Below are positions 1 to 13,574 of a stretch of 32,000 bases of DNA, piece after piece. The notes below the pieces were generated by a model. That model saw nothing but the letters and a program-made list of their open reading frames with translations, was not told the DNA's origin and searched no databases. The stretch is taken from positions 540,001 to 572,000 of the forward strand of contig CP001848.1 of assembly GCA_000025185.1 (NCBI GenBank). The letters run 5' to 3'. The stretch comes from Pirellula staleyi DSM 6068. GTDB lineage: Bacteria > Planctomycetota > Planctomycetia > Pirellulales > Pirellulaceae. Every line of letters starts with the position of its first letter. The stretch's first letter is position 1. Both the position numbers and the translations under genes were made by a program.

Positions 1-394
1 CAGCCGTGTGCCAAGCCTGCTCCACAACTAGTGGTTTCCCCGCAGAAGCCAACTCGACCACAAGACGAGTACGTGTCACCGTACCGCCCTGACCATCTGT
101 GTCGAAGCTCCCCTCCTCAGATGACTCGACTCGCCACGACCGCACTTCTGCCCACTTCAGCAGGAATCGATCGCCAGCCCAACACCGCAACTCCGTGATA
201 CCGTGCTCGTCCGCAGCGATTCGAGTCGCGGCTGCGTGAAGCAGCATACCAATAATCAGGCAGAACCCGCCCACGAGTCCGGCGGCTTCCCAACCTGTGG
301 CCCTGGCTTCTGCAGTCACGTCCGGCACGAATTGTAGTTCCGGCGAGGACCATAAACGTCTCTGTATAAATGCGATTGCGGATACCGCAATCAT
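1..394 (-). CDS. Hypothetical membrane protein, 3' end outside the window (cassette ORF)
   Basis: My own translation of the minus frame ending at 394 (ATG = cat 392-394) is open all the way to the window edge, so it is absent from the supplied track. It reads MIAVSAIAFIQRRLW...GLVGGFCLIIGMLLHAA...ITELRCWAGDRFLLKW, with two hydrophobic segments. The start is uncertain; the frame is open up to 451 and has a TTG at 407-409. Confidence 0.4.
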   Translation of the reverse strand, partial: MIAVSAIAFIQRRLWSSPELQFVPDVTAEARATGWEAAGLVGGFCLIIGMLLHAAATRIAADEHGITELRCWAGDRFLLKWAEVRSWRVESSEEGSFDTDGQGGTVTRTRLVVELASAGKPLVVEQAWHTA

Positions 395-453
395 CCCACC
401 CCAAGCCAATCCGGTAAAGAGAAAGAATGGGTTCGTCAGCCGTCTCTCATCTT

Positions 454-513
454 AGATAACACGCACGCTCACCATCCTTCCACTTAACGCTCCGGTTGAC
501 CGCTTTGTTCGCG
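454..513 (-). repeat. attC recombination site (weak candidate)
   Basis: AGATAAC (454-460) ... GTTCGCG (507-513). The right half resembles family A sites (CCGGTTGACCGCTTTGTTCGCGG). The left half is not convincing, so the site may be truncated. Confidence 0.3.
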
Positions 514-969
514 GAATCGTGGAATTGCGGAGGCGAGCCCTGTAATCGCCACGAACTCCTCAAATGAGTCAGCGACCTTGATCCATTGATTGCCAGCTCG
601 GCCCCATTGTAGCCGGAGAACACATGGTGATTCAGCCGATCGTCGATAATCGAGCACGAGTGGCGCGTCCGACCCAAGGCCAAAGTCTCCGATTGCGACC
701 GCCAAGGTATGATCAATTCCCAATGGTGCGGCATGTTCGGAAAGCCAAAACCTATCGCCGCCATTAATGAGCATCTGAATCGTGCATTGCGGCAAAGGAT
801 AGAAGTAAACCGTGCGTTCACCTGGCGCCCAATCGCGAATAGACTCTGGAGCGAGAATTGGATTCAGGTTCTGCGATTCCAGGTTCCCGCGTTCTGAAGG
901 CCAGATTCCGTTAGCCGCCAAACGCAACATGAATTCCGGTACGACTAAGCGGCCATCGATCATGCGCAT
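484..969 (-). CDS. SUKH/SMI1-KNR4-like immunity-type protein
   Basis: ORF track 484..996. I prefer the ATG at 967-969 because the upstream GTG lies inside the attC core. The pattern AVAIGDFGLGSDAPLVLDYR...LRLQWG...WIKVADSFEEFV matches what I recall of SUKH-superfamily immunity proteins. Confidence 0.6.
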   Translation of the reverse strand: MRMIDGRLVVPEFMLRLAANGIWPSERGNLESQNLNPILAPESIRDWAPGERTVYFYPLPQCTIQMLINGGDRFWLSEHAAPLGIDHTLAVAIGDFGLGSDAPLVLDYRRSAESPCVLRLQWGRAGNQWIKVADSFEEFVAITGLASAIPRFREQSGQPER

Positions 970-978
970 TTGTTGCTC

Positions 979-1074
979 CGCGAACGACAATCTCACCCGC
1001 CGCCGGGGCGGAGTGAGCTGTGAACTCCAGAAAGCCTACATGCCCCGCCGGTCAGGGTCAGCGACTGGTTCGGC
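979..1074 (-). repeat. attC recombination site (candidate)
   Basis: CGCGAAC (979-985) ... GTTCGGC (1068-1074). The outer arms CGAACGACAATC / GACTGGTTCG pair imperfectly. The right box overlaps the 3' end of ORF 1058..1531. Confidence 0.45.
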
Positions 1075-1531
1075 GTGCCTTATTGTACTCGGCGAGATCG
1101 ACCGCCATGGGGAAGTACTGCCGGAAGCTCTCGCCGATGGACCTGTCCCGGCACAGTAGCAACGTGCTGGTCGAGTCCCAGCACACGATCTCGACCTCGG
1201 CCAGCGGGTGCTGGATGCGCGGCTCGTCCACCCAAAAGCCCGCGTTGCCGTCCGCGTAGGGCACGACCGCTAGCCGGCACAGGTCGAGCGACACGTCCGG
1301 CGGGAATCCGGACAGGACCGCCCACACGAACTGCATGTCGTGCTCGGCGACCAGCCGCGTCAGCTCCTCGCCCGTCCGCCAGTGCGGCTCGCTGCCAATG
1401 AAGGGCGGCTGCTCATCATCCTCGTGAACGCCGAGCCAGCCGTACTCCAAGTCCGTGATGAGCCAATTGAAGTCCCGCTGACGGTCACCGATGGCTCGGA
1501 ACACGAGCCGCAGGTCGGTGAAGTACGGCAT
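1058..1531 (-). CDS. Hypothetical cassette protein
   Basis: This is the C-terminal 157 aa of track ORF 1058..1918, starting at MPYFTDLRLVF (cat 1529-1531). The upstream part of the track ORF runs through an attC site and was discarded. Confidence 0.6.
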   Translation of the reverse strand: MPYFTDLRLVFRAIGDRQRDFNWLITDLEYGWLGVHEDDEQPPFIGSEPHWRTGEELTRLVAEHDMQFVWAVLSGFPPDVSLDLCRLAVVPYADGNAGFWVDEPRIQHPLAEVEIVCWDSTSTLLLCRDRSIGESFRQYFPMAVDLAEYNKARRTSR

Positions 1532-1578
1532 CTCGCAGCGGCCTTCGAGAAGTGTCTCCACCGCTGAAGCCCTCCCTC

Positions 1579-1669
1579 GCCTAACGACCAAGGTAACCCG
1601 GCGGCGGCCAAGAACCTTTGATTTCAAAACCCACCCGAACCGCCGCTCGGGTTGATCGCCTTGTTCGGA
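1579..1669 (-). repeat. attC recombination site, family A
   Basis: GCCTAAC (1579-1585) ... GTTCGGA (1663-1669). The inner arms are AACCCGGCGGCGG / CCGCCGC-T-CGGGTT, with a single bulged T on the right arm. Confidence 0.7.
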
Positions 1670-1691
1670 AGCTTTTGTCAGCCGCATGTTC

Positions 1692-2144
1692 TTAAAACGG
1701 ACGGCCTTTCTTGAATGGGAACTGGGGCCAAGGAATGAGTGGCTGTCCAATGGACTGCGATTCCCACTGTGCATTGATATATTGTAATGGAGAGTCGGCA
1801 ATTTGACGCCAGGTGACGGACGGAAACATTGTGATTGCCCAATGATCGCAGTCCCATGAAATGTACAGATCAGAGTCAGGAATCCATGACAGAATGTGCT
1901 CTGGAGTGTAGCCGTCACAACTCTCTACCAGATTGACGACTGGAACCGCGTAATAGCCTTCAATACCTTTGTTCGGATCGGACGCAACGTCGTGCAATGA
2001 TTGCCCATCAACCCACACTTCGCCCAATTCGTGTTTGCCAAGCGGCAACAAGATAACTTGGCCACATTCACATTCGTGAACTGCATACTCAAGTTGACGC
2101 TTTGCGCTGAGGAAGTCGGTTAGATCGTCTGGGAGTGTAATCAT
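1692..2144 (-). CDS. SMI1/KNR4 (SUKH-1)-like immunity-type protein
   Basis: ATG start. N-terminal LPDDLTDFL, then GYYAVPVVNLVESCDGYTPEHILSWIP...WDCDHWAI. This is the pattern I associate with SMI1/KNR4 family proteins. Confidence 0.65.
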   Translation of the reverse strand: MITLPDDLTDFLSAKRQLEYAVHECECGQVILLPLGKHELGEVWVDGQSLHDVASDPNKGIEGYYAVPVVNLVESCDGYTPEHILSWIPDSDLYISWDCDHWAITMFPSVTWRQIADSPLQYINAQWESQSIGQPLIPWPQFPFKKGRPF

Positions 2145-2163
2145 GCCCTGTCCTTTGTCCGCT

Positions 2164-2252
2164 TCCGAACATTTGAGTTTAGGGGGGGCCGCACGCCATT
2201 GCCAGGTTCATGCGCAGTCCGTCACGGTGTCCCCTTCAACGAATTGTTAGCC
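2164..2252 (-). repeat. attC recombination site (candidate)
   Basis: TCCGAAC (2164-2170) ... GTTAGCC (2246-2252). The inner arms are GGGGGGCCGCACG / CGT-ca-CGG-tgt-CCCC. The TAA stop of ORF 2247..2636 lies inside the right box. Confidence 0.5.
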
Positions 2253-2636
2253 ACCGTACGCCTCCACCCACCTAGCTTCTCCGTGAGTAGTGACGCTTAG
2301 GCCGGTGGCCGTAATTTGAAGATTCTGGCCTGTTTCAAAATTCAGCTCAGCCACTACCTGACCATATGCATTGAGCGGTACTGGCAGCAAACCAACCAAC
2401 TCGCCTTGAATTGACACACGCCCATCCCAGAGCCGACCCTCAAGACCTGACTGAAGCTGTGTCTGGGTGCCCGAGAACGTGAGTGTGGCGGCCTGCAGGT
2501 AGCCATTCCCAGCAGTTACCCCAGGCTCACCCTCAGACTCGTGAATGTAGGCCTCTGAAAGCTCGACCACGAGGCAACTTTCCTTGACGTGCACAGAAGC
2601 TACGGTTGAGTCGTGGAATTCGAGGGCACGCTTCAT
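2247..2636 (-). CDS. Hypothetical cassette protein
   Basis: 129 aa ORF with an ATG start 4 nt from the next attC core. Begins MKRALEFHDSTVASVHV... Confidence 0.6.
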   Translation of the reverse strand: MKRALEFHDSTVASVHVKESCLVVELSEAYIHESEGEPGVTAGNGYLQAATLTFSGTQTQLQSGLEGRLWDGRVSIQGELVGLLPVPLNAYGQVVAELNFETGQNLQITATGLSVTTHGEARWVEAYGG

Positions 2637-2640
2637 AGGT

Positions 2641-2726
2641 GGCTAACGGATAAAGTTCACCCGCCGCCAGATTCACTCTCGGCCACGCTAGACGTTACGG
2701 CGGTCATGTGCAGCGACTTGTTAGGC
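2641..2726 (-). repeat. attC recombination site (candidate)
   Basis: GGCTAAC (2641-2647) ... GTTAGGC (2720-2726). The inner arms are CACCCGCCGCC / CGGCGG-tcat-GTG, with the extra bases on the right arm. Confidence 0.6.
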
Positions 2727-2730
2727 GGTT

Positions 2731-3105
2731 TTAGCTCAGGACAGTTACTATGCAGTGAACAGGCTTTCCGTGACGTACGATCACATACCCTGCACGCATC
2801 GCGAGCGTCCAGGGATTGATCAAGAACGGCCAAATCATATCCCCTGGCTGTATCGTGTCGCGAATGCGATGCCATTCGGGCGAATCAGGCAACTCTTGAT
2901 CAACATCTTCCGTGCCGAGTGAGCGACCAAACCAGCGGAAACTCGGCGGGGCATGACGCAAGGCTTCCCACCAAAGCTGTTGCTCATCGCCGCGGAGTGT
3001 GACGTACCAAGTTCCACGGCGGACAAGGAACCAATAGAGCCAGCGTAGAACGCCAAGGCGATACCACACGCTTCGCTCGCAACGAACTACTGCCGCTGCC
3101 ACCAC
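2731..3105 (-). CDS. Hypothetical cassette protein
   Basis: Track ORF 2731..3234 trimmed to the GTG at 3103-3105, because the upstream part crosses the attC at 3120-3209. The C-terminus reads ...DMIWPFLINPWTLAMRAGYVIVRHGKPV. Confidence 0.45.
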   Translation of the reverse strand: MVAAAVVRCERSVWYRLGVLRWLYWFLVRRGTWYVTLRGDEQQLWWEALRHAPPSFRWFGRSLGTEDVDQELPDSPEWHRIRDTIQPGDMIWPFLINPWTLAMRAGYVIVRHGKPVHCIVTVLS

Positions 3106-3119
3106 GGATACCTTTGAAC

Positions 3120-3209
3120 GCCTAACGCCAAGGTAACTGGGAGGCGGAGAACGACTTTCCATTTCAAAACCGCTTGGCCCGCGGCTCCGTGTGCAACCGA
3201 TTGTTGTCC
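3120..3209 (-). repeat. attC recombination site, family A
   Basis: GCCTAAC (3120-3126) ... GTTGTCC (3203-3209). It shares GCCTAACG-CCAAGGTAAC...GATTTCAAAAC-like sequence with sites 1579 and 10376. Confidence 0.6.
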
Positions 3210-3237
3210 GGCTTATCACATCAGTACGAAGCATCCG

Positions 3238-3546
3238 TCAAGCTGCTTCATTATAGTCGAGCGTGCAATAAGGCCTACCGTAAGGGATATCTTCTCCATC
3301 GGCATTGAAATTTGCGACGATTATACCACCCTTGATTTCGTCACCTGGCGTCAGTTTCGGTTGAGTCGATAGAAATCCAGGGCCCGTCAGGCGCAGTGTG
3401 CATCCGCCACGCGAGTCACGTGCTATCGCAAATGGCGTACCGGCATCGACATATCGGTCCCATGCATCATCTATCCACGCAACGAATACCAGCGAGTGTT
3501 CGCGGAGTTGCTCAGGAAAGATCGTCGCTTTACAGGAAAATGGCAT
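3238..3546 (-). CDS. Hypothetical cassette protein
   Basis: 102 aa ORF with an ATG start. Confidence 0.55.
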   Translation of the reverse strand: MPFSCKATIFPEQLREHSLVFVAWIDDAWDRYVDAGTPFAIARDSRGGCTLRLTGPGFLSTQPKLTPGDEIKGGIIVANFNADGEDIPYGRPYCTLDYNEAA

Positions 3547-3570
3547 CGGAAACTTGGATGAGCTTGAATC

Positions 3571-3668
3571 GGATAACGAAAAAGATCACCTGCCGAGGTG
3601 GCGGGTGTGACATTGAACTCGAAACGATTCTAGTCGCCTCCACGGTCAGCTGGAGCGGCTTATTCGGC
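3571..3668 (-). repeat. attC recombination site (weak candidate)
   Basis: GGATAAC (3571-3577) ... CTTATTCGGC (3659-3668). The inner arms are CCGAGGTGGCG / CGCCTCCACGG (imperfect). The right box is degenerate. Confidence 0.35.
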
Positions 3669-4267
3669 CGCTGTGCTACAGGGGAGGTCGAACATGCGCA
3701 CCGATCCGTCTTTGCTCTGCACCCGAATTGCCCCTTCCAGGACCCATCGAGCAAACTTAGCGTCGTTCTCGGGAAGGACAAACTCCGCCAGCTTCGGCAT
3801 GGGCAGATTTAGCGGTTCATGGAAATCGTACACCGTCACTTGATGCGGACAGGCCCAATAGCATCCGATGATCGCCACCTTCGTCCGATCCGGTGACGGA
3901 TGGAACTCAGTCCAGATGAACGGGTCATCAGGCGATGAGAACCCAGCCGTAAGCCCATCCGTTAGGTCGACGACCGTTTGTCCCTCTAAGTCCTCCGAGA
4001 AAAGTAGGTAGTCGTGCCGGCCCGAGATACCCAAGCGTAGAAGCAGCGGCTGTCATTCCGCTTGATACTCGCCACCTCATGCTCATCGTCGATGCGACTG
4101 ACAACCACGACGGCGAAGTCCGCGCCGTGCTCGTCTTCGTATTCTGCTATCTCAAGCCGGTATCGACCGCACGGCGACAACTCGGTGACCGGTTGGGCTG
4201 GGGATAGCCGTGCTGATGCCAGCGCACGCACAGTCGCCTCACGGACTTTCTGTATTTCGTTCTTCAC
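3660..4267 (-). pseudogene. Cassette gene split by a frameshift (two overlapping ORFs, 3986..4267 and 3660..4034)
   Basis: The upstream frame ends ...IKRNDSRCFYAW then runs into nonsense. The second frame reads on as GISGRHDYLLFSEDLEGQTVVDL... The two frames overlap by 49 nt, and together they fill one cassette between two attC sites. Confidence 0.5.
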
Positions 4268-4302
4268 CGCTGTTGCACCCGCGCGAGGCTTCCTGTCTTA
4301 AG

Positions 4303-4389
4303 GCCGAACGACTAAATTCACCCGCCACGCCAATCAGTTTGCCACACCTGACCGACGTGGCCGTGGTCGGGTGCAATGGCTTGTTATGC
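4303..4389 (-). repeat. attC recombination site (candidate)
   Basis: GCCGAAC (4303-4309) ... GTTATGC (4383-4389). The inner arms are CACCCGCCACG / CGTGG-T-CGGGTG, with a bulged T on the right arm. The TAA stop of ORF 4384..4782 lies in the right box. Confidence 0.65.
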
Positions 4390-4782
4390 CCAGCCGTAGA
4401 GGACAGTTCGCATCGCAAACATGCCGGCCAGACAGATGCCGTACCAAGCGATCGAATGCATTAGCAACTTCCCAACGCCCCGCCAGCCGCGACTCCACAC
4501 AATGTAGCCAGGCACTACAATCCCGGCCAAGATGAAAAACCAAAACCGAGCAAGGAGCGGAATGGGATGGCTACGCGCAATGGAGTCAGCCACCGCCCAT
4601 ATACACATGACCGTGCACATGGCAAGCGGCACGAGGATTTCGAGCACCGACGCCGCGGGATAATAGGCGCACCGAATCCCCCAAACAACCGCGAGCACGT
4701 AGAAGCAGCCGAGGAGCCACCAGTGCAGTTTCGACCGCTGCGGAGGGCCGGTCTTCGCAGGCGTTTCGGGCAGCGGATTCAA
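4384..4782 (-). CDS. Small multi-pass membrane protein (cassette ORF)
   Basis: 132 aa with a TTG start in the track. There are four hydrophobic stretches (LHWWLLGCFYVLAVVWGI, ILVPLAMCTVMCIWAV, FWFFILAGIVVPGYIVW, IAWYGICLAGMFAM). Confidence 0.6.
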   Translation of the reverse strand: MNPLPETPAKTGPPQRSKLHWWLLGCFYVLAVVWGIRCAYYPAASVLEILVPLAMCTVMCIWAVADSIARSHPIPLLARFWFFILAGIVVPGYIVWSRGWRGVGKLLMHSIAWYGICLAGMFAMRTVLYGWA

Positions 4783-4794
4783 TCAACCTCCGAG

Positions 4795-4886
4795 GCATAA
4801 CGCTTGCAATCACCCGGTTGGCGCGAGTGACGTGGTAAAGTGAACTTGGCACCGCCGCCAACTCGGTGTGCATTGCATTGTTATTG
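4795..4886 (-). repeat. attC recombination site (candidate)
   Basis: GCATAAC (4795-4801) ... GTTATTG (4880-4886). The inner arms are CAATCACCCGGTTGGCG / CGCCAAC-T-CGGTG-tgc-ATTG. Confidence 0.65.
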
Positions 4887-4898
4887 CCCTACTCGACT

Positions 4899-5294
4899 CT
4901 ACGTTTCCATCGGTGGATGTAAGCCGAAATCACCATCTTTCCACCCGTGAAACCCCATGCACATCCCATCGCCGTCAGCGAGATTGATTTCCGCTACAGC
5001 TTCACCAGTGTCCAGATCAGTGAGCTGGACAGAAACAGAAAGGTTTACGCGATGTTCTTCGTTTTCAAGGGATCCAGAAACACCGTCGATGATCATCATG
5101 ATTCCATAGACTGCATCATCAATTGCTTTCAATGCCGCTGAGCGCGCATCGTCACTGAGTCCAGCCTCGAGTTGTTCGATTGCATAGTTTCGCACATCTT
5201 CAAAGATGATAAGCCCGGCTGCATTTTGAATCCAGAGATCGCGTTTTCGTTCATCGCTCGGAGGTCGCGTCAATCTTCTTTGGTGTGTTGCCAT
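4899..5294 (-). CDS. Hypothetical cassette protein
   Basis: 131 aa ORF with an ATG start. Confidence 0.6.
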   Translation of the reverse strand: MATHQRRLTRPPSDERKRDLWIQNAAGLIIFEDVRNYAIEQLEAGLSDDARSAALKAIDDAVYGIMMIIDGVSGSLENEEHRVNLSVSVQLTDLDTGEAVAEINLADGDGMCMGFHGWKDGDFGLHPPMET

Positions 5295-5359
5295 AGGGGA
5301 TTTGGTTCAATGCTATCAGAGTGATTGCCTCACGGTTGATCTCGGGACTCTGTCTTGGG

Positions 5360-5454
5360 CAATAACGATAATGTTAAGCTGCCCCCGCCCACGTTGGACG
5401 AGCACCACGCAAGCCACTTGCAGGGCGGGAGTCAGCTTGAACGCCTTGTTCGGC
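5360..5454 (-). repeat. attC recombination site (candidate)
   Basis: CAATAAC (5360-5366) ... GTTCGGC (5448-5454). The inner arms are AAGCTGCCCCCGCCC / GGGCGGGAGTCAGCTT. Confidence 0.65.
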
Positions 5455-5460
5455 CTGTCT

Positions 5461-5832
5461 TTACTGCCACAGAGCCTTCGATCGGCTAATAATGCCGACG
5501 ACTCGCTCGTCGATTCCGCGGCCAATCCGCCACACCACCCGTCCGTGCTCTAGCCAGAGAACAGCACCCCAGCCTTCGGGGACGCCAACGCCATCAAACG
5601 TGACGAGCAGCCCAAGCGACGACAGCCACCCCTGACCGACATCGGATTCCTCGTCTACAGCGAACGCCTCGACCTGCAGCCCGATCTCGGCAAGACGCGC
5701 CACCGCCTCGCGGAAGTTTGCGCGAGCCGTCCGCTCCGGACCAGACCACGGGACGGTGAGGAACACCATCGCTCGAGGTGCCGCGTTGATGGCGGCGATC
5801 ATCGCTTCGTCGGTACCCTCCTGCACGATCAT
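5461..5832 (-). CDS. Thioredoxin-fold-like protein lacking the CxxC motif (second gene of a two-gene cassette)
   Basis: Track ORF 5461..5910 trimmed to MIVQEG (cat 5830-5832). AMVFLTVPWSGPERTARANF resembles a Trx active-site region, with WSGPE in place of WCGPC. Its ATG overlaps the upstream TGA as ATGA. Confidence 0.5.
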   Translation of the reverse strand: MIVQEGTDEAMIAAINAAPRAMVFLTVPWSGPERTARANFREAVARLAEIGLQVEAFAVDEESDVGQGWLSSLGLLVTFDGVGVPEGWGAVLWLEHGRVVWRIGRGIDERVVGIISRSKALWQ

Positions 5833-6158
5833 CCGCCCCCCCACTTCCGCCGATCTACAGCAGCCACATGTCTGGCGAGTTCGAGTAGCAAGCCATCCCC
5901 CAGCTCGCATTCGGCGAGAAGATAGTTTCCTGACCAGTTGTCCCAGCCGGCAGCTAATGACACACCCTCCCTGACGTACGAAGGCATTATGCCCTCGTCA
6001 CAACCGATGACCGGCTGAGACTCCGTCAACAGTGTCCGGCGTGTAAAGCCCTGGGCAGTCAGCCAGTCAACCGCGAGAAACCACTGCGGAGAGTCGTACG
6101 CCTCGAACTCCAGCAGGTTGCGGCCGTTAGCAGCTTTCAGAAGCAGCGGTGTTTCCAT
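5829..6158 (-). CDS. Hypothetical protein (first gene of a two-gene cassette)
   Basis: Track ORF 5829..6227 trimmed to METPLLLK (cat 6156-6158), 5 nt from the attC core at 6164. Confidence 0.5.
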   Translation of the reverse strand: METPLLLKAANGRNLLEFEAYDSPQWFLAVDWLTAQGFTRRTLLTESQPVIGCDEGIMPSYVREGVSLAAGWDNWSGNYLLAECELGDGLLLELARHVAAVDRRKWGGG

Positions 6159-6163
6159 CAGTG

Positions 6164-6242
6164 GCCTAACGACTGCGTTCACTTGAGGGCCGGCTGCAAG
6201 GAACGCGAGGTCTCGAAAAACCGTCATGCCGGCCCGTTAAGT
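6164..6242 (-). repeat. attC recombination site (candidate)
   Basis: GCCTAAC (6164-6170) ... GTTAAGT (6236-6242). The inner arms are CTTGAGGGCCGGC / GCCGGCCCGTTAAG. The right box lies in the last codons of ORF 6224..6718. Confidence 0.65.
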
Positions 6243-6718
6243 GCAACGCTTTGCTCGGGCTCCGCTGTCCTTTCCCAAACGCGAAAATCGAAATCGTAAG
6301 GGCAGCCCAAGATGATGTACCGCCCGTCCGAAGAGAAGGTCGCAGCCGCCCAATCGCCGGAGAAGTTCTCGAACGTGGACGACCAAACTTCCTTTCCATC
6401 CTTGAACACCGATACCGTCTCGCCTTCTGGGTTCAGAACTAACTGTTCGACATTCGGGGCAGAGAGAATCGGGCGGCCGGGGTACAAACCAATGATGTCC
6501 CACTCCATTCCTTGATAACGGCACACCCCGCTGTCGGGGTCGAACAGGTCATACTCGGCGTACTCTGGGTCTGTCTCGACGGTGATGGGATGACCGAGTC
6601 GGACCAGGTGTATGCCCTCATAGGAAACGACCAGCACTGTGTCATCCTTCGGGATTGAGAACCCGATCATCCGCTCGCAGATATCGGGAACCGACAGTCT
6701 TCGCCACGCCGCCGCCAA
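6224..6718 (-). CDS. Hypothetical beta-rich cassette protein
   Basis: 164 aa from a TTG start; an alternative ATG sits at 6668-6670 (MIGFSIPKDD). Reads ...SGDWAAATFSSDGRYIILGCPYDFDFRVWE. Confidence 0.6.
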   Translation of the reverse strand: MAAAWRRLSVPDICERMIGFSIPKDDTVLVVSYEGIHLVRLGHPITVETDPEYAEYDLFDPDSGVCRYQGMEWDIIGLYPGRPILSAPNVEQLVLNPEGETVSVFKDGKEVWSSTFENFSGDWAAATFSSDGRYIILGCPYDFDFRVWERTAEPEQSVALNGPA

Positions 6719-6733
6719 TGTGCGCCCCCTGTT

Positions 6734-6823
6734 GCCGAACTTTCAAAATCACCCGGCGGGCGCGGTTGATTGCCTATTGTGAAAATGCCCGATCGCCCGC
6801 TCGAGTGCATTGTGTTGTTAGGT
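6734..6823 (-). repeat. attC recombination site (candidate)
   Basis: GCCGAAC (6734-6740) ... GTTAGGT (6817-6823). The inner arms are CACCCGGCGGGCG / CGCCCGC-T-CGAGTG. The TAA stop of ORF 6818..7249 lies in the right box. Confidence 0.65.
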
Positions 6824-7249
6824 GTCCCCGCTGGAAGCAAAAGCCTCGATTCCGCGTGTGCAGGATCGTAGCGTTTGAACAAGTGGGGCATACAGCGATG
6901 CCGCACCGTCGCGCGCTGAAAGGAAATCGTACCAGGCGAACAACCTCATCACTTCGTCCGCATCTTCCACATATATCTCGTTCAGGCCGTCTGATTCGTC
7001 CCGGAGAAAGCGGGTAAGCATGAACGGCAAGATAGTCAGCCGCTCTGCATCCGACGCTTCGAATGGCTTCAGGGAATCATCGGCATACACGGTAACATTT
7101 CGGCGTATACCCGAACTCCAATCCAGAGTCATAGCGCCGTTGACGTATTCGACAAAGGGAGGGAGAAGCCTCTGGATTTCACGCCAACGGCCGACGCTAA
7201 CATCCCCGAGCTCGTGCTCGTAACTTTTGTAGAACAGGATATGTCCCAC
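6818..7249 (-). CDS. Hypothetical cassette protein
   Basis: 143 aa with a GTG start 9 nt from the attC core. Confidence 0.55.
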   Translation of the reverse strand: MGHILFYKSYEHELGDVSVGRWREIQRLLPPFVEYVNGAMTLDWSSGIRRNVTVYADDSLKPFEASDAERLTILPFMLTRFLRDESDGLNEIYVEDADEVMRLFAWYDFLSARDGAASLYAPLVQTLRSCTRGIEAFASSGDT

Positions 7250-7258
7250 TGTACCCCC

Positions 7259-7358
7259 GCTTAACGCCCAAGCTCAGCGGACCGGCCCGCCGAGAGAAAG
7301 CCTCATGATACCGGAAACCTCGGCGGCGGGCCGGGTCCGCTGCAGCGCGAGGTTAGGA
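7259..7358 (-). repeat. attC recombination site (candidate)
   Basis: GCTTAAC (7259-7265) ... GTTAGGA (7352-7358). The long inner arms are CAGCGGACCGGCCCGCCGAG / CTCGGC-ggc-GGGCCGG-g-TCCGCTG, with the extra bases on the right arm. Confidence 0.7.
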
Positions 7359-7359
7359 G

Positions 7360-7734
7360 TCAGACCAGCTCGATCTCGTAACCTAACGCCGCGGCACTCC
7401 GACGCAAGAGCCCCTCGGTCGCCCGCTCTTGCTCGCCGGAATGGTAGCCGATGAAGAGGCCCTCGCCGGGCATCGCCACGAAGCTCAAGGCTCGCTCTCC
7501 CGACGGCTCGTCAGCGACCGTGACCCAGACCGCCTCCGGCTGTGCCTTGCGGTGGGCCTCGACGATCTCGTCGGGGGCGCGCATGCGGAGGAACTGAGCA
7601 ATCATGTCGCCGACATGATCAGCCCCGGCGTCCCGGTCGGTATCGACGATGGCGAACTCCTCGCGGAGGCGACGGACGACCTCACTCGGGGTGAGATAGC
7701 TCCGGCCGGACTTCGGCGAGAGACGATGGGCCAT
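7360..7734 (-). CDS. Hypothetical cassette protein
   Basis: Track ORF 7360..7755 trimmed to MAHRLSPKSG (cat 7732-7734), because the upstream residues enter the attC. Confidence 0.55.
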   Translation of the reverse strand: MAHRLSPKSGRSYLTPSEVVRRLREEFAIVDTDRDAGADHVGDMIAQFLRMRAPDEIVEAHRKAQPEAVWVTVADEPSGERALSFVAMPGEGLFIGYHSGEQERATEGLLRRSAAALGYEIELV

Positions 7735-7746
7735 TAGGGTAGAGCC

Positions 7747-7806
7747 GCCTAACACCGGAATTAAGCCGACCCGCGAAGCGGGTTCGGCTTGAATGAATTG
7801 TTAGGC
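7747..7806 (-). repeat. attC recombination site (60 bp, classical 59-base-element size)
   Basis: GCCTAAC (7747-7753) ... GTTAGGC (7800-7806), a perfect consensus pair. The inner arms are AAGCCGACCCGC / GCGGG-T-TCGGCTT, with a single bulged T. Confidence 0.75.
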
Positions 7807-7839
7807 CCCGACCGCGTACAGCCGGAGCCAGATACTTGC

Positions 7840-8052
7840 CTAGCTGCCACTTGGGTCGGCTCTGAACACTCGACGACGATACTCGTGCAGCCCAGCAAGC
7901 AACACATCATCCTCGGCACTGAAGATTTGAGGGCAGGGATCGCTAGGCAGAATAGCGTTTACAACGATCTGACCGAGGCGCAGGTCCGGCTCGCGCTCCC
8001 AGATCTCTCGCAGCACTTCAAGGATCTGCTCAATTCGTTGGGGATCGCGCAT
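7840..8052 (-). CDS. Small hypothetical cassette protein
   Basis: Track ORF 7840..8172 trimmed to MRDPQRIEQILEVLREIWEREPDLRLGQIVVN (cat 8050-8052). The discarded N-terminus is translated attC sequence. Confidence 0.5.
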   Translation of the reverse strand: MRDPQRIEQILEVLREIWEREPDLRLGQIVVNAILPSDPCPQIFSAEDDVLLAGLHEYRRRVFRADPSGS

Positions 8053-8057
8053 ACGGG

Positions 8058-8144
8058 GCCTAACGTTCTGCATCACCGGCCGCCGCTGGTGATGAACCAT
8101 TGTGAAACCAAAGCCGAACGGCGGTCCGGTGCATGCGGTTGTTC
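8058..8144 (-). repeat. attC recombination site, family B
   Basis: GCCTAAC (8058-8064) ... GTTGTTC (8138-8144). The inner arms are CTGCATCACCGGCCGCCG / CGGCGG-T-CCGGTG-C-ATGC. Confidence 0.7.
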
Positions 8145-8152
8145 TTCCGAGT

Positions 8153-8584
8153 TCACGATTCTCGGCGAACAACCGGTAAGTTACTAGCGCAGGATGATTC
8201 AGTGGGAAAACGATTCAGGTATTCCCCAAATTCGACCATTGCGGCTTGAAGTGCCTTGATGACTTTTAATCGCCTAGATTCCTTCAAGAGGTGTCCCGGC
8301 AACCGTTCAAACCACCGTTGACTAACGTCGCGTTCAAATCCATGTTCGGTGGTGTCGAGACGTGAGCTCGGACGTAACTTCTGCTGGTAGTACTCCAAAA
8401 CCGGCTTGATTTGGGCAACGCTACCAAATCGGAAAGTAAAGCCGCAGACCTCGACGCAATATGTCCACACCGGGATGAGTGCTGGATTTGGCGATACGTC
8501 ATGTGCGGGTAATCCGACATACGCATGAAGATCGAAGTGTTGCGACCAGTGACCCTTTCGCTCTTCTTTCCAAATCCGAGCCAT
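8153..8584 (-). CDS. Hypothetical cassette protein
   Basis: 143 aa ORF with an ATG start. Confidence 0.6.
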   Translation of the reverse strand: MARIWKEERKGHWSQHFDLHAYVGLPAHDVSPNPALIPVWTYCVEVCGFTFRFGSVAQIKPVLEYYQQKLRPSSRLDTTEHGFERDVSQRWFERLPGHLLKESRRLKVIKALQAAMVEFGEYLNRFPTESSCASNLPVVRRES

Positions 8585-8622
8585 TGAAACGCTTTATCTG
8601 GAAAACGCCGAAAATCAGCCGC

Positions 8623-8688
8623 TGCCAACGACTGATGCTTTAATTGAATCCGGCCTATACGGCAGTCTGCTGCATTTGCTCGTTAGGC
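8623..8688 (-). repeat. attC recombination site (weak candidate)
   Basis: TGCCAAC (8623-8629) ... GTTAGGC (8682-8688). The inner arms are CAGCCGCTGCC / GGCAGTCTGCTG (imperfect). The TAA stop of ORF 8683..9090 lies in the right box. Confidence 0.4.
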
Positions 8689-9090
8689 GGCGCCCGCTGC
8701 AGCCTGCCCCGTACAAATCGCCTCGAGAATGATACTCGACAACCCCGTCTTCAAAACACTATCCATTGGTCGCAATTCTTCGGCTGTGCTCTCCCAGCGG
8801 GAAGCTTGCCCAATCTGAAAGATTTCGGCCCGCGCCCATACTCGCAGCGCGACAACGTTCGATTCGTCAAGTGAGAGTACGACCCACACCTTCTCGACTT
8901 CACTACCTCGCCATTGCCTGATCTCGAACCGGTGACTCCACGAAAGAGAATCATTCTTATAGTGGTACGTGCGCGCTGACTCGTCAACGATCACGATTCC
9001 ACGTGCAATCAAGATAGCCTGTTCTCGACGCAACAACTCGTCCAGCAGGTGTTCTGCTTCACGAAACTGATGCTCTACTGCGGTGATCAT
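8683..9090 (-). CDS. Hypothetical cassette protein
   Basis: 135 aa ORF with an ATG start 7 nt from the attC core. Confidence 0.6.
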   Translation of the reverse strand: MITAVEHQFREAEHLLDELLRREQAILIARGIVIVDESARTYHYKNDSLSWSHRFEIRQWRGSEVEKVWVVLSLDESNVVALRVWARAEIFQIGQASRWESTAEELRPMDSVLKTGLSSIILEAICTGQAAAGAA

Positions 9091-9097
9091 TGCTGTC

Positions 9098-9192
9098 GCC
9101 TAACGGATCAATATTCACTGGACGGGCCAATGACCAGCTTTCGAATCACAGGGACCGTTGCGGCCCCGGTTCAGTGCAGTGTTTGGTTAGGC
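9098..9192 (-). repeat. attC recombination site (candidate)
   Basis: GCCTAAC (9098-9104) ... GTTAGGC (9186-9192). The inner arms are CACTGGACGGGCC / GGCCCCGGTTCAGTG. Confidence 0.6.
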
Positions 9193-9210
9193 AGCAGCCG
9201 GGTCGCCGCA

Positions 9211-9648
9211 TCACCAGTTAAACCAAACGACGAAGCGAACTCGGTCCGCGCCGAACCGTTCTTCGAGAGTACGAGCGAACGCAAACGATAGCGTCCATTG
9301 GCTATCCTCGGGCGGCTCCTTCAGTGCGTAACCGCGAATCTCATCCCACAAAGCCCATGTGTAACCGCCCATTTCGCCGGTGCCGAACTTCGCTTCATGT
9401 GCTTCGATCTCGTCGAGAGCTCGACGGACTTGCACGGAAGGGTTCGCAGGCACCCCACGGGCAGCGGCGATTGCGGCGACCGACTTTTCGCCGCTCACGC
9501 ACCCTTTGGACATGCCAAAGATCTGTTCGGTGTCCTCGTCCGCGACGTCGACGATCGCACCGAGATTGACTACGCCAGACCATGCGTGCTCGTCTGCCGT
9601 CTCCGGCAACCGTGCGACCTCGATCCATCCTTCAATCCAGAAGGGCAT
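9211..9648 (-). CDS. Hypothetical cassette protein
   Basis: Track ORF 9211..9777 trimmed to MPFWIEGWIEV (cat 9646-9648), 8 nt from the attC core. Confidence 0.55.
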   Translation of the reverse strand: MPFWIEGWIEVARLPETADEHAWSGVVNLGAIVDVADEDTEQIFGMSKGCVSGEKSVAAIAAARGVPANPSVQVRRALDEIEAHEAKFGTGEMGGYTWALWDEIRGYALKEPPEDSQWTLSFAFARTLEERFGADRVRFVVWFNW

Positions 9649-9656
9649 CTGCTGCT

Positions 9657-9745
9657 GCCTAACTTTCTGCCTCACCGGACGCCGCTGGTGATGAGCCATT
9701 GAAAAAACCAACGCCGAACGGCGGTCCGGTGCATGCGATTGTTTG
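9657..9745 (-). repeat. attC recombination site, family B
   Basis: GCCTAAC (9657-9663) ... GATTGTTTGC (about 9737-9746). It is near-identical in its central part to sites 8058 and 11781 (CACCGG-CGCCGCTGGTGATG ... CCGAACGGCGGTCCGGTGCATGCG). Confidence 0.65.
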
Positions 9746-10353
9746 CTACTCCCAATAGTCTTCCCATTTATCCGCAAACGCTTCCTTCAGACGTTGCATG
9801 TAGGCATTGGTCTTGATCTTTGCCATCCAGACTTTCCCGTTAGGCACACCCTTGCAAACCACGCCTTCAGCCACGCCGAATCGACCTTCACGGACATCGT
9901 CCGCGAATTTGCCGGTTAGCTTACCGCGATAGACCGTCCGTGCAATCGGGAGATTGACCAGATCCTGTACGAATTGGGCTGGCGAAAGAAAACCGTCCGC
10001 GGTTTGCACGTCAATGATGACCAGCCGTTTCGTGTCAGTCGAAAGGTGCTTTCCTGCAAAAGAGTGGTCACCGAGGAACTCCGTAAAGACAATCAGCTCG
10101 TTTGCGCCGTAACAATCAAGACCGGACAAAACTGAAGACAGTTGTTCCGCAAAGGCACCGAGTTAAATGCTGCGATTCCTTGATCATCAAGGTCAAACCG
10201 ATCTTGACGTGTGCCGAATGCATACCAACCGAGCGTAGCATCCCAGACCCAATGGATGTTGGTGCCATCGTATTTCTCGAATGCAATGCAAGTGCCAAGC
10301 GGTGCATCACCACTGTCGGGCATCTTCGGATAGACGAGATTAGTACGAGCCAC
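9746..10353 (-). pseudogene. ATP-dependent RNA ligase (nucleotidyltransferase-domain type), interrupted by a frameshift
   Basis: The upstream ORF (10093..10353) carries motif I, EKYDGTN. The downstream ORF (9746..10129) carries FTEFLG (motif III), EGVVCKG (motif IV) and MAKIKT (motif V). The second frame is closed by a TAA just upstream of ...LGAFAEQLSSVLSGLD, which places the shift at about 10160-10175. Confidence 0.7.
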
Positions 10354-10375
10354 AGAAGAGGTACTTAATCTTGGT

Positions 10376-10460
10376 AGCGAACGGCCAAGGCAACCCGGCG
10401 GCGGCCAAGAACCTTTGATTTCCCCCCGACCCGCCTCTCGGGTTGACCGCCCTGTTTGCG
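10376..10460 (-). repeat. attC recombination site, family A
   Basis: AGCGAAC (10376-10382) ... GTTTGCG (10454-10460). The stretch CCAAGGCAACCCGGCGGCGGCCAAGAACCTTTGATTTC is almost identical to site 1579. Confidence 0.65.
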
Positions 10461-10463
10461 CCG

Positions 10464-11183
10464 CTACTTAGGCGCAGGCCAGCGTTTCCCACCATTAAAG
10501 CAGATCTCCTTCAGTTGAGGCAGTGCGTCCAACAAGGCGTCGTATTCTGACGGATAATAGTCATCAGAGAGCCAGAGATATTCCAATTTCTTCAACTGCT
10601 TGAGAGGCAACAAATTACGCCGTTCTTTCGGAAGGCGCACAAGCAGAACAGCAAACTGAAGTTCCTTGAGTGCAGAAAGTGGATTCAATGACTCGACCTG
10701 ATAGCGGGCGCTAATCTGTCCATCGATGTAGATTTCTCGAAGTTCGGGTAGCGTCGAAAGCGGCTCCAGCGAAGTGACTCCCATGGCTTCGCTGACACAC
10801 AGGGAATGCAGCCAATCCATACCTCGCACGAATTCCAGAGACTCCTGTTGCCGATTCCACCCCAACACCAGCGTTCGGAGATTTTTCAGGCAAGCCAACG
10901 AAGGTATGTCTTTGCATTTTGGCAGCGTTAATTTGACATGCTCGAGATTCGGCATACTCGCAAACGCTGGAAGCCATTCTTCATGCAGTGGAGAATGAAC
11001 TCGACGAATCTCTCTAAAGCGTGGAAGGTCGTCGATGTGTTTCGTCTTGCGGTTGAGCCATACAGACCGAACGTCGGACGGCAAGTCTGCGACGTCATCG
11101 CATAAGACCATACCTGGAGGCATTCCCAAGTAGGGAGCTCGATGCGTTGCTGCGAACTCTTTGATGTAATTTCGGGTTGGCAT
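10464..11183 (-). CDS. Leucine-rich repeat protein
   Basis: 239 aa with an ATG start. It has a repeated LxxLxxLxL periodicity (LPNLEHVKLTL, LKNLRTLVLGWN, LPELREIYIDG, LKELQFAVLL, LKKLEYLWLSD). Confidence 0.7.
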   Translation of the reverse strand: MPTRNYIKEFAATHRAPYLGMPPGMVLCDDVADLPSDVRSVWLNRKTKHIDDLPRFREIRRVHSPLHEEWLPAFASMPNLEHVKLTLPKCKDIPSLACLKNLRTLVLGWNRQQESLEFVRGMDWLHSLCVSEAMGVTSLEPLSTLPELREIYIDGQISARYQVESLNPLSALKELQFAVLLVRLPKERRNLLPLKQLKKLEYLWLSDDYYPSEYDALLDALPQLKEICFNGGKRWPAPK

Positions 11184-11194
11184 GCAGCTTCTAC

Positions 11195-11285
11195 GGCGAA
11201 CGGTAGCGGTAACCGGGGCGCCGCCACAAAACTAGGATTTCAAATCCCGCGTTATCGGCGGCTCCGGTTCACCACTTTGTTCTGT
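11195..11285 (-). repeat. attC recombination site, family A-like
   Basis: GGCGAAC (11195-11201) ... GTTCTGT (11279-11285), with central GGATTTCAAATCCC. ORF 11232..11753 reads 54 nt into this site before its stop. Confidence 0.55.
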
Positions 11286-11753
11286 CGCGTTTAGTAACGG
11301 TTTGCATTTAACTTTACATTCAGCGGTCGTCGCCGTTGGATTATAGCCTGGAATTCGGCCAACCAGTTCAGGAAATGCCGAAGTCAAGGCCGCCCACCCT
11401 GCGGTGCGACGATGCATTTCATCGGATGCCAGCAGTGATTGGACGAATGATAGTTCGCATTCAATGTCGGAGCCACGTCGGTTGAGTTCAAGCAGTAGTA
11501 TGTTGGGAGTCAGGCAGGCGGGGTCATGGAGTTCGCCGACCAATTGTTCATCGGTCATGCGTTCAAATCGTCGTGAGATCCACCTAAGGCAGACGATGAG
11601 AGGCATCTGTCCAATCGTCGCACCCAGTACGAATCCGATTGGGATGCCGACAACACAACCAAGTATGCCAAAAGCGTTCCATCCGGTTGATCCGAGAACG
11701 ACCGCGCCACCCACAGCGGCAATCAATCGAATTAGGTCAAACAGGGTAAACAT
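11232..11753 (-). CDS. Membrane-anchored hypothetical cassette protein
   Basis: 173 aa with an ATG start and two N-terminal hydrophobic helices (LIRLIAAVGGAVVLGSTGW, ILGCVVGIPIGFVLGATIG). Confidence 0.6.
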   Translation of the reverse strand: MFTLFDLIRLIAAVGGAVVLGSTGWNAFGILGCVVGIPIGFVLGATIGQMPLIVCLRWISRRFERMTDEQLVGELHDPACLTPNILLLELNRRGSDIECELSFVQSLLASDEMHRRTAGWAALTSAFPELVGRIPGYNPTATTAECKVKCKPLLNATEQSGEPEPPITRDLKS

Positions 11754-11780
11754 GTCATTGACGTGTAAGCGGTCTTAGCG

Positions 11781-11868
11781 ACAGAACGTTCTGCATCGCC
11801 GGCCGCCGCTGGTGATGTGCAATAGTGAAACCAAAGCCGGGACGGCGGTCCGGTGCGTGCGGTTGTTT
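11781..11868 (-). repeat. attC recombination site, family B
   Basis: ACAGAAC (11781-11787) ... GTTGTTT (11862-11868). The central sequence matches sites 8058 and 9657. Confidence 0.6.
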
Positions 11869-11974
11869 GCTGATGAAGTGCAGTTGGACGTTGCCAAATC
11901 GCCATCAACCAAAACAAGCGAAAGACTGCGATGACCATGAGCGATCATCGATTGGGAAAACCGCCGATCGGCGA

Positions 11975-12475
11975 CTACGGTCTATCGGTTGGTTCGTCGA
12001 CATTTTGATTCGAGTCACTTCGCAGTTTTGGAATAAGGTACCACAGAATATAGCCAGAGTCGATCAATTCACCGGCATCACACGAAGCCTTGATTGTCGA
12101 ACGGAGTTCCACAGAGTCAGCAAAGCCATATTTGGTTTGTAGTACATGGCGGGCAAATCTCTCCATGCGATAGAAATCGAGCCCATCAATTTGTCCATGT
12201 TCGCCAAAATCGAAGTCAACGCTGAATTCCGGTGTCTTGACAGCGCATCCAAAGCCGTGAATGAAGTACTGACCGCCATTCGCCAACTGTCCCATCTGCG
12301 GAACATCGTAGGCGACCCAATCAATCGTCGATTGTGGTCGAGGTATGCCTATCGCCTCTAAAGATTCGACCGCATATCGAACCGCGTCCTGATAGTCATG
12401 GATCAATCGAATCAACCGAGCGTCAATTGCAACTGCTCCCGTCGAAGAACAACTTGTATACAGAACTCTACACAT
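11975..12475 (-). CDS. Hypothetical protein (last recognisable cassette ORF before the recombinase remnant)
   Basis: 166 aa with an ATG start. QYFIHGFGCAVKTPEFSVDFDFGEHGQIDGLDFYRMERFA resembles a DUF-type family I recall seeing among immunity-like genes. This is unverified. Confidence 0.6.
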   Translation of the reverse strand: MCRVLYTSCSSTGAVAIDARLIRLIHDYQDAVRYAVESLEAIGIPRPQSTIDWVAYDVPQMGQLANGGQYFIHGFGCAVKTPEFSVDFDFGEHGQIDGLDFYRMERFARHVLQTKYGFADSVELRSTIKASCDAGELIDSGYILWYLIPKLRSDSNQNVDEPTDRP

Positions 12476-13053
12476 TCCTCTGAGGGCGTATTCTGCTTAT
12501 CTCGGGGGGTAGTGTCAACGAAAGTCAAGAAAGGTGCGATAGGCTCCAACTTATCCCGACTTCTGCAAAATCTGGATGATCTAGAATCGTCTTAATTCCT
12601 CCGTCCCAATACCGCGAACTATGGCTTAGCTGCCCACATTTACAGCAGCAGGACTTCGACGCAGGTCGCTGATCTGCACCGACCGGAAAGCCGATTCAAT
12701 ACCCTCTAACTGGTAGTGCTCGTCTTGATCGACGTTTTTCGTCCGGCCGTCAGCACCACGTAGTACAGCTTGTCGGTTCCCAGACGGCTCACCGGTCTCT
12801 GCCTGATCTTGCTCACCACCACTCGATCACCCGGTCGACAGCGATGCACTTCCCCCCAGAACTTCCTTGACCATGCTCGTCGCCTCCTAGAGTTTGCTTT
12901 CTATCTGTCTGAGTAACCGCTTCTTTTCAGCGGACTGGCGTGCTTCTCGTTTCGCTTCCCGCTCCTCGGACTTTTCAATCATCTGCTGCAGTTTCAGCAG
13001 CACGGTTCGCTTGCCATGGTCATGTGCCTGCAGCTCGAGCAATCTTTGTCGTG

Positions 13054-13383: not shown

Positions 13384-13499
13384 TTGACGACGGATGATAA
13401 ACTTAGGGGGCTCAGATTGATAGCGGAAAGCGATACTCGTCACAGGTGGTCACAGTTGAGGTCACATCCCGCCATCGAATTTGACGTAAGTCCTTATCT

Positions 13500-13572: not shown

Positions 13573-13574
13573 CT
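13524..13574 (+). repeat. attL (direct repeat, inside the intact tRNA)
   Basis: CACCGGTTTCCTAAACCGGTGGTCGTGGGTTCGAATCCCGCCCAGGGTACT is identical to 23227-23277. Confidence 0.9.

Follow-up and report, generated by a model that had tools for sequence, protein, structure and literature searches.

A probable orphan integron gene-cassette array in the chromosome of Pirellula staleyi DSM 6068

Do the small, one-directional genes and intervening palindromes in one stretch of the Pirellula staleyi DSM 6068 chromosome form the cassette array of an integron and, if they do, where is the integrase that would serve it? We analysed 32,000 nucleotides of this planctomycete genome (contig CP001848.1, positions 540,001 to 572,000; hereafter the window, with positions counted from its first letter). 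A sequence-only reading of the same letters had proposed a hidden integron cassette array in its left part, hidden only in the sense of lacking annotation and made of about 21 units in one orientation, each an open reading frame (ORF) with a cassette recombination site (attC). We conclude, with a probability of roughly 0.88, that the window from position 1 to ~12500 is a chromosomal integron gene-cassette array of at least 21 cassettes, and that it is an orphan, with no integrase beside it.

Twenty solid attC sites of 60–100 nt occupy the gaps that separate minus-strand ORFs from position 977 to position 11873, and one decayed site follows them. The imperfect palindromes of 60–100 bp were present where the sequence-only reading had placed them, and its estimate of about 21 units was borne out. 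The left-box starts of neighbouring sites are 311–819 bp apart, and minus-strand ORFs occupy 84–99% of the space between sites, starting 4–65 nt past the preceding R′ box. Polarity is identical in all 20 sites, with the + strand as the bottom strand; the cassettes are therefore read on the minus strand, as all the ORFs are, with the ORF upstream of its own attC across 21 units. It also follows that the R′ core site is, as expected, the left box, the better conserved of the two, whose GCCTAAC reads GTTAGGC on the coding strand. By the same polarity, the attI/intI end of the array lies to the right. A unit usually holds a single ORF, as had been claimed; the exceptions are three units with two overlapping ORFs and an ORF-less 136-bp unit at 11781–11917, which is an attC plus 45 nt. 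The ORF stop overlaps the attC at 10 of the 20 sites, and four stops fall within the right box itself. Three of these had been pointed out beforehand and are exact (ORFs 4384–4782, 6818–7249 and 8683–9090); the other belongs to ORF 2247–2636.

The array is not contained by the window on its left. A minus-strand frame is open there from ~440 through position 1 and beyond, and the array therefore extends leftward out of the window; a collapsed attC remnant at 480–515 had a non-significant score. On the right, a search with an attC model detected no site between 12000 and 12710, so that the array proper ends near 12000–12500, somewhat short of the position 12710 originally proposed.

The sites carry the full published attC bottom-strand architecture, beyond the two boxes. 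In described sites, the R′ box RYYYAAC carries the cleaved AAC and is complementary to the R″ box GTTRRRY, extrahelical bases occupy position 16 (usually G) and position 23/24 (a conserved T) with a 6-bp stem between them, spacers are 5–6 nt, and total length is 57–141 bp (Nivina 2016, PMC5027507). The lengths of the window sites fall within this range. On the + strand, the 5′ arm comprises the 7-nt R′ box, 6 unpaired nt, 3 bp, 6 bp, a further stem and a variable loop; the 3′ arm comprises stem, an unpaired T, 6 bp, an unpaired C or G, 3 bp, 5 unpaired nt and the 7-nt R″ box. The extrahelical bases stand at positions 16 and 23 from the 3′ end, on the arm opposite the AAC. The T at position 23 is present in 20/20 sites, separated by 6 bp (7 in two sites) from position 16, which is unpaired in every site (C in 15, G in 5). 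Central spacers are mostly 6 and 5 nt, with 5 to 8 nt on the 5′ arm in a few sites. The box consensus that had been put forward held at its core and loosened outside it: left boxes have AAC in 20/20 and the strict RYYYAAC in 8/20 (GCCTAAC in 7 of them), and right boxes have GTT in 18/20 (site 3571 has ATT and site 6164 has GCT) and the strict GTTRRRY in 5/20.

We scanned the window with a strict structural template, which fixes the spacers and the bulge positions and requires at least 17 of 21 pairs. It gave 10 matches with the + strand as bottom strand. Chance origin is excluded because the same template matched nothing on the − strand, nothing in the 13–32-kb part of the window and nothing in 100 Markov-shuffled 13-kb sequences. 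When the 13 best sites were aligned, 88.5% of the structure cells were paired, compared with 69% when columns were shuffled and 29–42% when the partner was slid by 1–3 columns. Compensatory change on both sides was found in 14 of the 21 pairs, a count that is partly circular, the 13 aligned sites having been chosen by structure. The R-box helix was 78% paired and the L helix 93.9%, with compensatory change in 11 of 14 L pairs.

The sites resemble one another little in sequence: pairwise identity averages 61%, with two subfamilies standing closer together (8058/9657/11781 at 82–88% identity; 1579/10376/3120 at 73–80%), and a gapless inverted-repeat finder recovered only 2 of the 20 sites. The assertion that these elements are conserved in structure rather than in sequence, and would be missed by a repeat finder, was thus accurate. 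Naive pairing of AAC/GTT 7-mers (at least 6 of 7 complementary) returned mostly noise over the whole window, and loosening the template gave noise at scores under 17; to tell the sites from background, either strict geometry or a covariance model is needed. Rfam has no attC family, and its search of the window returned only two tRNA matches.

A covariance model trained on 13 window sites (R1) recovered the 7 untrained window sites at E values of 1e-10 to 5e-3, all on the + strand, and elsewhere in the window returned nothing below E 0.08. Recovery of sites that the model had not seen makes this a non-circular test. One genome per species was scanned for an L-box motif shared by four window sites, and at least 120 stretches carried it, mostly from Pyrinomonadaceae and other Acidobacteriota, Abditibacteriaceae, Cyanobacteria and Planctomycetes. 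In 80 of these motif loci, R1 found 239 sites, those of each locus clustering on the same strand. With IntI1 as the tblastn query, full-length homologs (41–53% identity) were identified in eight loci and fragments in several more. The query was validated by the proteins it retrieved, two of which scored 398 and 428 bits on NCBIfam TIGR02249 ‘integron integrase’ (cut-off 265). Twelve loci have an IntI homolog, and in 11 of them attC polarity correctly predicts the side of the integrase, to the right of + sites and to the left of − sites. Most of these integrases diverge from the cassettes, but those of the planctomycete loci L052 and L013 run in the cassette direction. These two metagenome-assembled genome (MAG) loci, with the integrase at 3552–4469 and 72–281, respectively, have the ‘inverted’ arrangement; locus L079 (Pirellulales) and the other seven that encode a full-length homolog have a divergent integrase.

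A second model (R2) was built from 31 sites of the IntI-bearing loci only and contained zero window sequence. At E≤1e-3 it recovered every window site but one (19 of 20), each on the + strand, in agreement with ORF orientation. Site 977–1076 and the decayed site at 11915–12000 were found at E ~0.03, with the next match elsewhere at E 0.06, and R2 returned no match at E≤0.01 in 453 kb of unrelated metagenome loci. In addition, single window sites are 78–89% identical to sites in Planctomycetia, Planctomycetaceae and Rubricoccaceae MAGs. The window sites have the structure and polarity recognised by integron integrases, and sites of the same type accompany verified integrases elsewhere. The 60-nt site at 7747–7806 shares 89% identity with one from a Rubricoccaceae MAG (L032, 1502–1567), from a different phylum than the remaining close matches. 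A metagenome scan for attC of the 8058 type found nothing. The best external attC matches, together with a Blastopirellula homolog of the recombinase fragment described below, are indirect evidence that the host is probably a Pirellulales-like planctomycete.

Several observations weigh against an integron origin. Folding energies were unimpressive, with a mean z of −1.75 and 7 of 20 sites above −1, and they did not differ between the + and − strands. The case therefore rests on conserved geometry rather than on stability, and the polarity rests on the extrahelical bases. Five sites (979, 2164, 3120, 3571 and 6164) are degenerate. Position 16 is C in 15 of the 20 sites, while the literature on mobile and Vibrio integrons has usually G. 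R2 is not fully independent, its training sites having first been located with the window-derived R1.

Close relatives added a further point on the same side. Exact-protein look-ups returned only two short Logan contigs, L001 and L122, which derive from sequencing runs SRR31654782 and SRR28423907; five other look-ups were empty. L001 is 98.9% identical to window positions 1607–4332 and collinear with them over five cassettes, with no cassette gained or lost, so that the cassette-by-cassette variation anticipated among relatives was not seen in this one comparison. L122 is 98.8% identical to 12246–13529 and shows the same right-end junction as the window. Over 2.7 kb the window and L001 differ at 29 places, and nine of these sit in a single attC (3120–3209, at 3138–3198), which pairs better in the L001 version. 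This clustering suggests local replacement or decay of the site, not uniform divergence.

We next consider the end of the array where an integrase would be expected. Rightward from attC 11781–11871 come the decayed site at 11917–11998, a DUF6896 gene, a truncated recombinase gene, a tRNA-Arg gene, an island and sulfur-metabolism genes. IntI1 and eight IntI proteins from other loci detected no IntI-like sequence in the 32-kb window, including the 19.5 kb on the attI side, and the window holds no recognisable attI; attI sequences are not known to be conserved between integron classes. Because the window holds no intI, this is a cassette array, a cluster of attC sites lacking integron-integrase (CALIN), and not a demonstrated complete integron. 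The sequence-only reading of an attC cassette array is thus supported, on the strength of the architecture, R1 and R2. CALIN are defined by two or more attC on the same strand at distances below 4 kb and by the lack of a neighbouring intI, and this holds across the 32-kb window; in IntegronFinder’s terms the array is a large CALIN, or else one that has come away from its platform.

The alternative that survives best is that the array is the distal part of a complete sedentary chromosomal integron whose intI and attI persist in the genome but were parted from it by a rearrangement or when the tRNA-Arg hotspot took up insertions. On this view it would belong functionally to an integron and would not be an independent CALIN. 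We regard this as possible, if doubtful. It would account for an array of at least 21 cassettes, when only 6.6% of CALIN exceed 10 sites, and rearrangement is listed, with intI loss, among the origins of CALIN in a survey that also recorded integrons in Planctomycetes (Cury 2016, PMC4889954). Most attC sites look intact, and the attI-proximal end abuts rearrangement debris, namely the truncated recombinase at 13063–13420, the tRNA-Arg island and the 52-nt repeats. However, the 19.5 kb right of the array contain neither an IntI-like sequence nor an intI pseudogene, the AAC triplet is gone from the attI-proximal attC, and two or three cassette genes look frameshifted.

The island spans 9.7 kb (13500–23276) in tRNA-Arg(CCT) and is bounded by 52-nt direct repeats; the tRNA gene is intact at 13500–13573 and its 3′ 52 nt are repeated exactly at ~23224–23276. 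It encodes a 497-aa tyrosine integrase (13733–15226), helix-turn-helix and sigma-like regulators, and a serine resolvase (18831–19427). Between the array and the tRNA gene, 13063–13420 (+) encodes the C-terminal ~105 residues of a member of a small tyrosine recombinase family (200–225 aa, catalytic domain only), which has at least 514 relatives in one metagenome scan; the N-terminal ~117 residues are missing, with no trace of the N-terminal half. We rejected this fragment as an intI relic, because it belongs to the small recombinase family and 13051–13440 has no TIGR02249 match, and found no relation between it and the island integrase.

It is very improbable that this small recombinase family, rather than an integron integrase, serves the array. 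A truncated member does lie where an integrase would sit, and a Blastopirellula MAG has an attC array with a full-length member (P0007, 204 aa) 3.3 kb upstream of it and no IntI within 10 kb. However, attC matches were absent from all 80 metagenome loci (453 kb) that carry family members, and on this count we rejected the idea; moreover, orientation relative to the cassettes differs between the window and the Blastopirellula MAG, the window copy is without its ~117 N-terminal residues, and the proteins do not match TIGR02249. On a separate 3.4-kb metagenome contig (L151), a family member (383–1006) and an IntI homolog (2270–3247) lie 1.3 kb apart; the latter is 37–45% identical to the IntI of seven other loci, and no attC was detected on the contig. 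Hardly credible, finally, is an origin as dispersed palindromes of the repetitive extragenic palindromic (REP), bacterial interspersed mosaic element (BIME) or miniature inverted-repeat transposable element (MITE) kind, or as terminators, unrelated to integron recombination: the sites are indeed imperfect palindromes in intergenic gaps, some folding no better than shuffled sequence and none with an adjacent integrase, but all 20 share one polarity, given by unpaired bases that are asymmetric and fixed in position, the remaining 19 kb of the window (13–32 kb) and 453 kb of unrelated loci contain no such site, the model also picks out arrays beside verified integrases on the predicted side, low identity with structure kept is the opposite of REP/MITE copies, no site has a T tract, and sites 11781 and 11917 were not called in a terminator scan of 11800–13700.

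If the sites act as integron attC sites do, each cassette would be a promoterless small minus-strand ORF with its attC. The + strand, when single-stranded, would fold so that R′ (NNNNAAC) pairs with R″ (GTTNNNN) and L′ with L″, leaving the 6/5-nt central spacer and a flipped-out C or G (16) and T (23) opposite the AAC. Two integron integrase monomers, positioned by the flipped-out bases, would bind to the R and L boxes (PMC5027507, PMC4889954), and cleavage would fall between the A and C of the R′ AAC. Recombination of attC with attC would excise a circular cassette, and recombination of attI with attC would re-insert it behind a promoter. With no local integrase or attI, the array would be a passive store, movable only if an IntI elsewhere in the genome acts in trans. 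Recombination itself, the supply of IntI in trans and the manner of integrase loss are here argued from established integron biology. Most array genes are probably promoterless and silent. The only sigma-70-like promoter hexamers matched lie at 12518–12490 on the minus strand, just upstream of the DUF6896 gene, and the decayed attC next to it, with AAA for AAC, would lock this gene at the head of the array.

The attC sites and cassette genes are listed in the table. The sequence-only reading had described arrays of this size as reservoirs of defence genes; PADLOC matched no known defence system among 20 cassette ORFs, and the remark is unsupported here. Two cassette genes appear split, either by real frameshifts or by assembly errors. 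In the first, a gap near 4019 (position 315 of L001) yields overlapping ORFs 3660–4034 and 3986–4267. The second (9746–10353) is probably a frameshifted RNA-ligase-like cassette gene, judging from its translation: only when the halves are merged does it match PF09414 RNA_ligase (E 1.4e-5, 25.7 bits against a cut-off of 27), with both halves spanned and a KYDGTN motif included. The closest link to another array is ORF 8153–8584, whose tblastn homolog in a Pyrinomonadaceae MAG (L117, 5193–5528) lies between attC at 5075–5168 and 5536–5629 of the same geometry. This gene is therefore cassette-borne and common to an acidobacterial array and that of the window.

Table. Positions of attC sites and cassette genes in the window, from left to right (R1 and R2, scores in bits with the two covariance models; template, score with the strict structural template; untrained, outside the R1 training set; aa, amino acids)
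Feature	Positions	Strand	R1	R2	Remarks
Cassette ORF running off left window edge	1–440	−			>145 open codons; no Pfam match
Cassette ORF, 161 aa	484–969	−			Weak SUKH/SMI1_KNR4 similarity (PF09346, E 0.0018, below curated cut-off)
attC, weak/degenerate	979–1074	+	18.0 (E 0.005)	15.5 (E 0.035)	R′ CGCGAAC, R″ GTTCGGC
Cassette ORF, 167 aa	1058–1561	−			Function not recognised
attC	1579–1669	+	87.1	62.4	R′ GCCTAAC; extrahelical G and T; template 18.5/21
Cassette ORF, 150 aa	1692–2144	−			Function not recognised; identical protein on Logan contig L001
attC, weaker stem	2164–2252	+	24.3 (untrained)	21.2	R″ GTTAGCC holds stop of ORF 2247–2636
Cassette ORF, 129 aa	2247–2636	−			Function not recognised
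attC	2641–2726	+	56.4	44.2	R′ GGCTAAC, R″ GTTAGGC; 78% identical to site in L013 (Planctomycetaceae MAG)
Cassette ORF, at least 124 aa	2731–3105	−			Function not recognised
attC, arms poorly paired	3120–3209	+	28.9 (untrained)	26.8	Related to 1579 and 10376
Cassette ORF, 102 aa	3238–3546	−			Function not recognised
attC	3571–3668	+	29.2 (untrained)	21.4	R″ starts ATT, not GTT
Split cassette gene	3660–4267	−			1-base gap near 4019; single 212-aa ORF in L001
attC	4303–4389	+	65.5	60.3	R″ GTTATGC holds stop of ORF 4384–4782; template 19/21
Cassette ORF, 132 aa	4384–4782	−			Membrane-protein-like by reading of translation
attC	4795–4885	+	43.4 (untrained)	46.6	R′ GCATAAC, R″ GTTATTG
Cassette ORF, 131 aa	4899–5294	−			Function not recognised
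attC	5360–5454	+	37.7 (untrained)	32.0	R′ CAATAAC, R″ GTTCGGC
One cassette, two overlapping ORFs (149 and 109 aa)	5461–6158	−			Function not recognised; possibly one frameshifted gene
attC	6164–6259	+	34.0 (untrained)	34.2	R″ GTT mutated to GCT
Cassette ORF, 164 aa	6224–6718	−			Function not recognised
attC	6734–6823	+	72.7	49.3	R″ GTTAGGT holds stop of ORF 6818–7249
Cassette ORF, 143 aa	6818–7249	−			Function not recognised
attC, longest (100 nt)	7259–7358	+	58.2	39.9	Fold −31.6 kcal/mol, z −4.3
Cassette ORF, 124 aa	7360–7734	−			Function not recognised
attC, short 60-nt type	7747–7806	+	52.1	51.4	Perfect R box GCCTAAC/GTTAGGC; template 21/21
Cassette ORF, 70 aa	7840–8052	−			Weak DUF1040 similarity (PF06288, E 1.3e-4, below cut-off)
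attC	8058–8147	+	82.5	51.0	Subfamily with 9657 and 11781 (82–88% identical)
Cassette ORF, 143 aa	8153–8584	−			47.5%-identical homolog is a cassette in a Pyrinomonadaceae array
attC	8600–8688	+	63.3	43.2	R″ GTTAGGC holds stop of ORF 8683–9090
Cassette ORF, 135 aa	8683–9090	−			Function not recognised
attC, perfect R box	9098–9192	+	58.6	36.9	
Cassette ORF, 145 aa	9211–9648	−			Function not recognised
attC	9657–9747	+	74.7	32.5	
One cassette, two overlapping ORFs	9746–10353	−			RNA ligase-like jointly; probable frameshift
attC	10376–10460	+	66.3	44.4	Subfamily with 1579 (80% identical)
Cassette ORF, 239 aa	10464–11183	−			Leucine-rich repeat protein (Pfam LRR_4, E 1.1e-10)
attC	11195–11285	+	70.2	54.4	82% identical to L052 site beside integron integrase (Planctomycetia MAG)
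Cassette ORF, 173 aa	11232–11753	−			N-terminus membrane-helix-like by reading of translation
attC, last solid attI-proximal site	11781–11871	+	69.7	35.4	
Decayed attC after DUF6896 gene	11917–11998	+	15.2	15.8 (E ~0.03)	Cleavage triplet AAC reads AAA
DUF6896 gene, most attI-proximal	11975–12475	−			PF21837, E 1.7e-26

Beyond the island, a sulfur-handling cluster at 25982–30518 (+) encodes a rhodanese with a YgaP-like membrane domain, a metallo-beta-lactamase-rhodanese fusion, a TauE/SafE exporter and a pyridine-nucleotide-disulphide oxidoreductase.

The array is an ordinary example of a well-known element, and orphan arrays have already been described. It is mildly unusual only in its size for an orphan array, its heterogeneous attC and the C in place of G at position 16. 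In the comparison loci, position 16 is C in 29 of 31 integrase-adjacent sites from four phyla, represented by Planctomycetia, Acidobacteriota, Abditibacteriota and Cyanobacteria (L028, L031, L047, L051, L052, L063, L075, L079 and L085), a proportion biased by the choice of these loci with a C-containing motif. One might speculate that attC with C at position 16 form a distinct recognition class that has co-evolved with soil/freshwater IntI, and that the array remains a live bank of cassettes, with IntI supplied in trans and cassettes passing between phyla. The exchange part of this idea draws on the cassette gene shared with the Pyrinomonadaceae array and on attC 82–89% identical in other phyla; as a whole, we consider it unlikely. 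The sites do provide a natural set of attC with C at position 16, which could be used to ask how strictly integrases read the first extrahelical base. The array also adds one more large integrase-less example, with ~22 small genes of which nearly all are unrecognised in function, to the catalogue of environmental integrons, and it is a structure-defined element that ORF tracks and repeat finders miss, yet one spotted by unaided reading of the sequence.

Among known systems, CALIN are the nearest in organisation (Cury 2016, PMC4889954). The window array has their arrangement of attC and absence of a nearby intI, and its cassettes are mostly of unrecognised function and include no resistance genes. 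In contrast to a typical CALIN, with a mean of ~5 sites, it has at least 21. Taxon-specific attC models exist for Planctomycetes, Acidobacteria and Cyanobacteria (Ghaly et al. 2021). Sedentary chromosomal integrons, exemplified by the Vibrio cholerae superintegron and its V. cholerae repeats (VCR), share with the window a long one-directional array of small ORFs of unrecognised function, long-type attC (85–100 nt) with a sizeable variable terminal structure, and stops often inside R″. Unlike the superintegron, the window shows no intI/attI platform and no recognised toxin-antitoxin cassettes, and its attC are heterogeneous (61% identity, with two subfamilies at 73–88%) and not one homogeneous repeat.

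Similar to attCaadA7 and other attC of mobile integrons (Nivina 2016, PMC5027507), the window sites have AAC in R′, 6/5-nt spacers, extrahelical positions 16 and 23, a 6-bp stem and a conserved distal T, and site 7747–7806 is of the compact 60-nt type found there. They differ from mobile-integron attC in that position 16 is mostly C, most sites are longer and the bottom strand has no folding-energy advantage. The closest resemblance is to integron arrays in MAGs of Planctomycetia, Pirellulales, Acidobacteriota, Abditibacteriota and Cyanobacteria (L052, L079, L047, L051, L085, L028 and L063). Those arrays have a TIGR02249 integrase on the attI side, whereas the window has none; they share with the window the motif TCACCSG ... 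GGTC..GTG-C-A ... TTGTT, sites up to 82–89% identical to window sites, and one homologous cassette gene.

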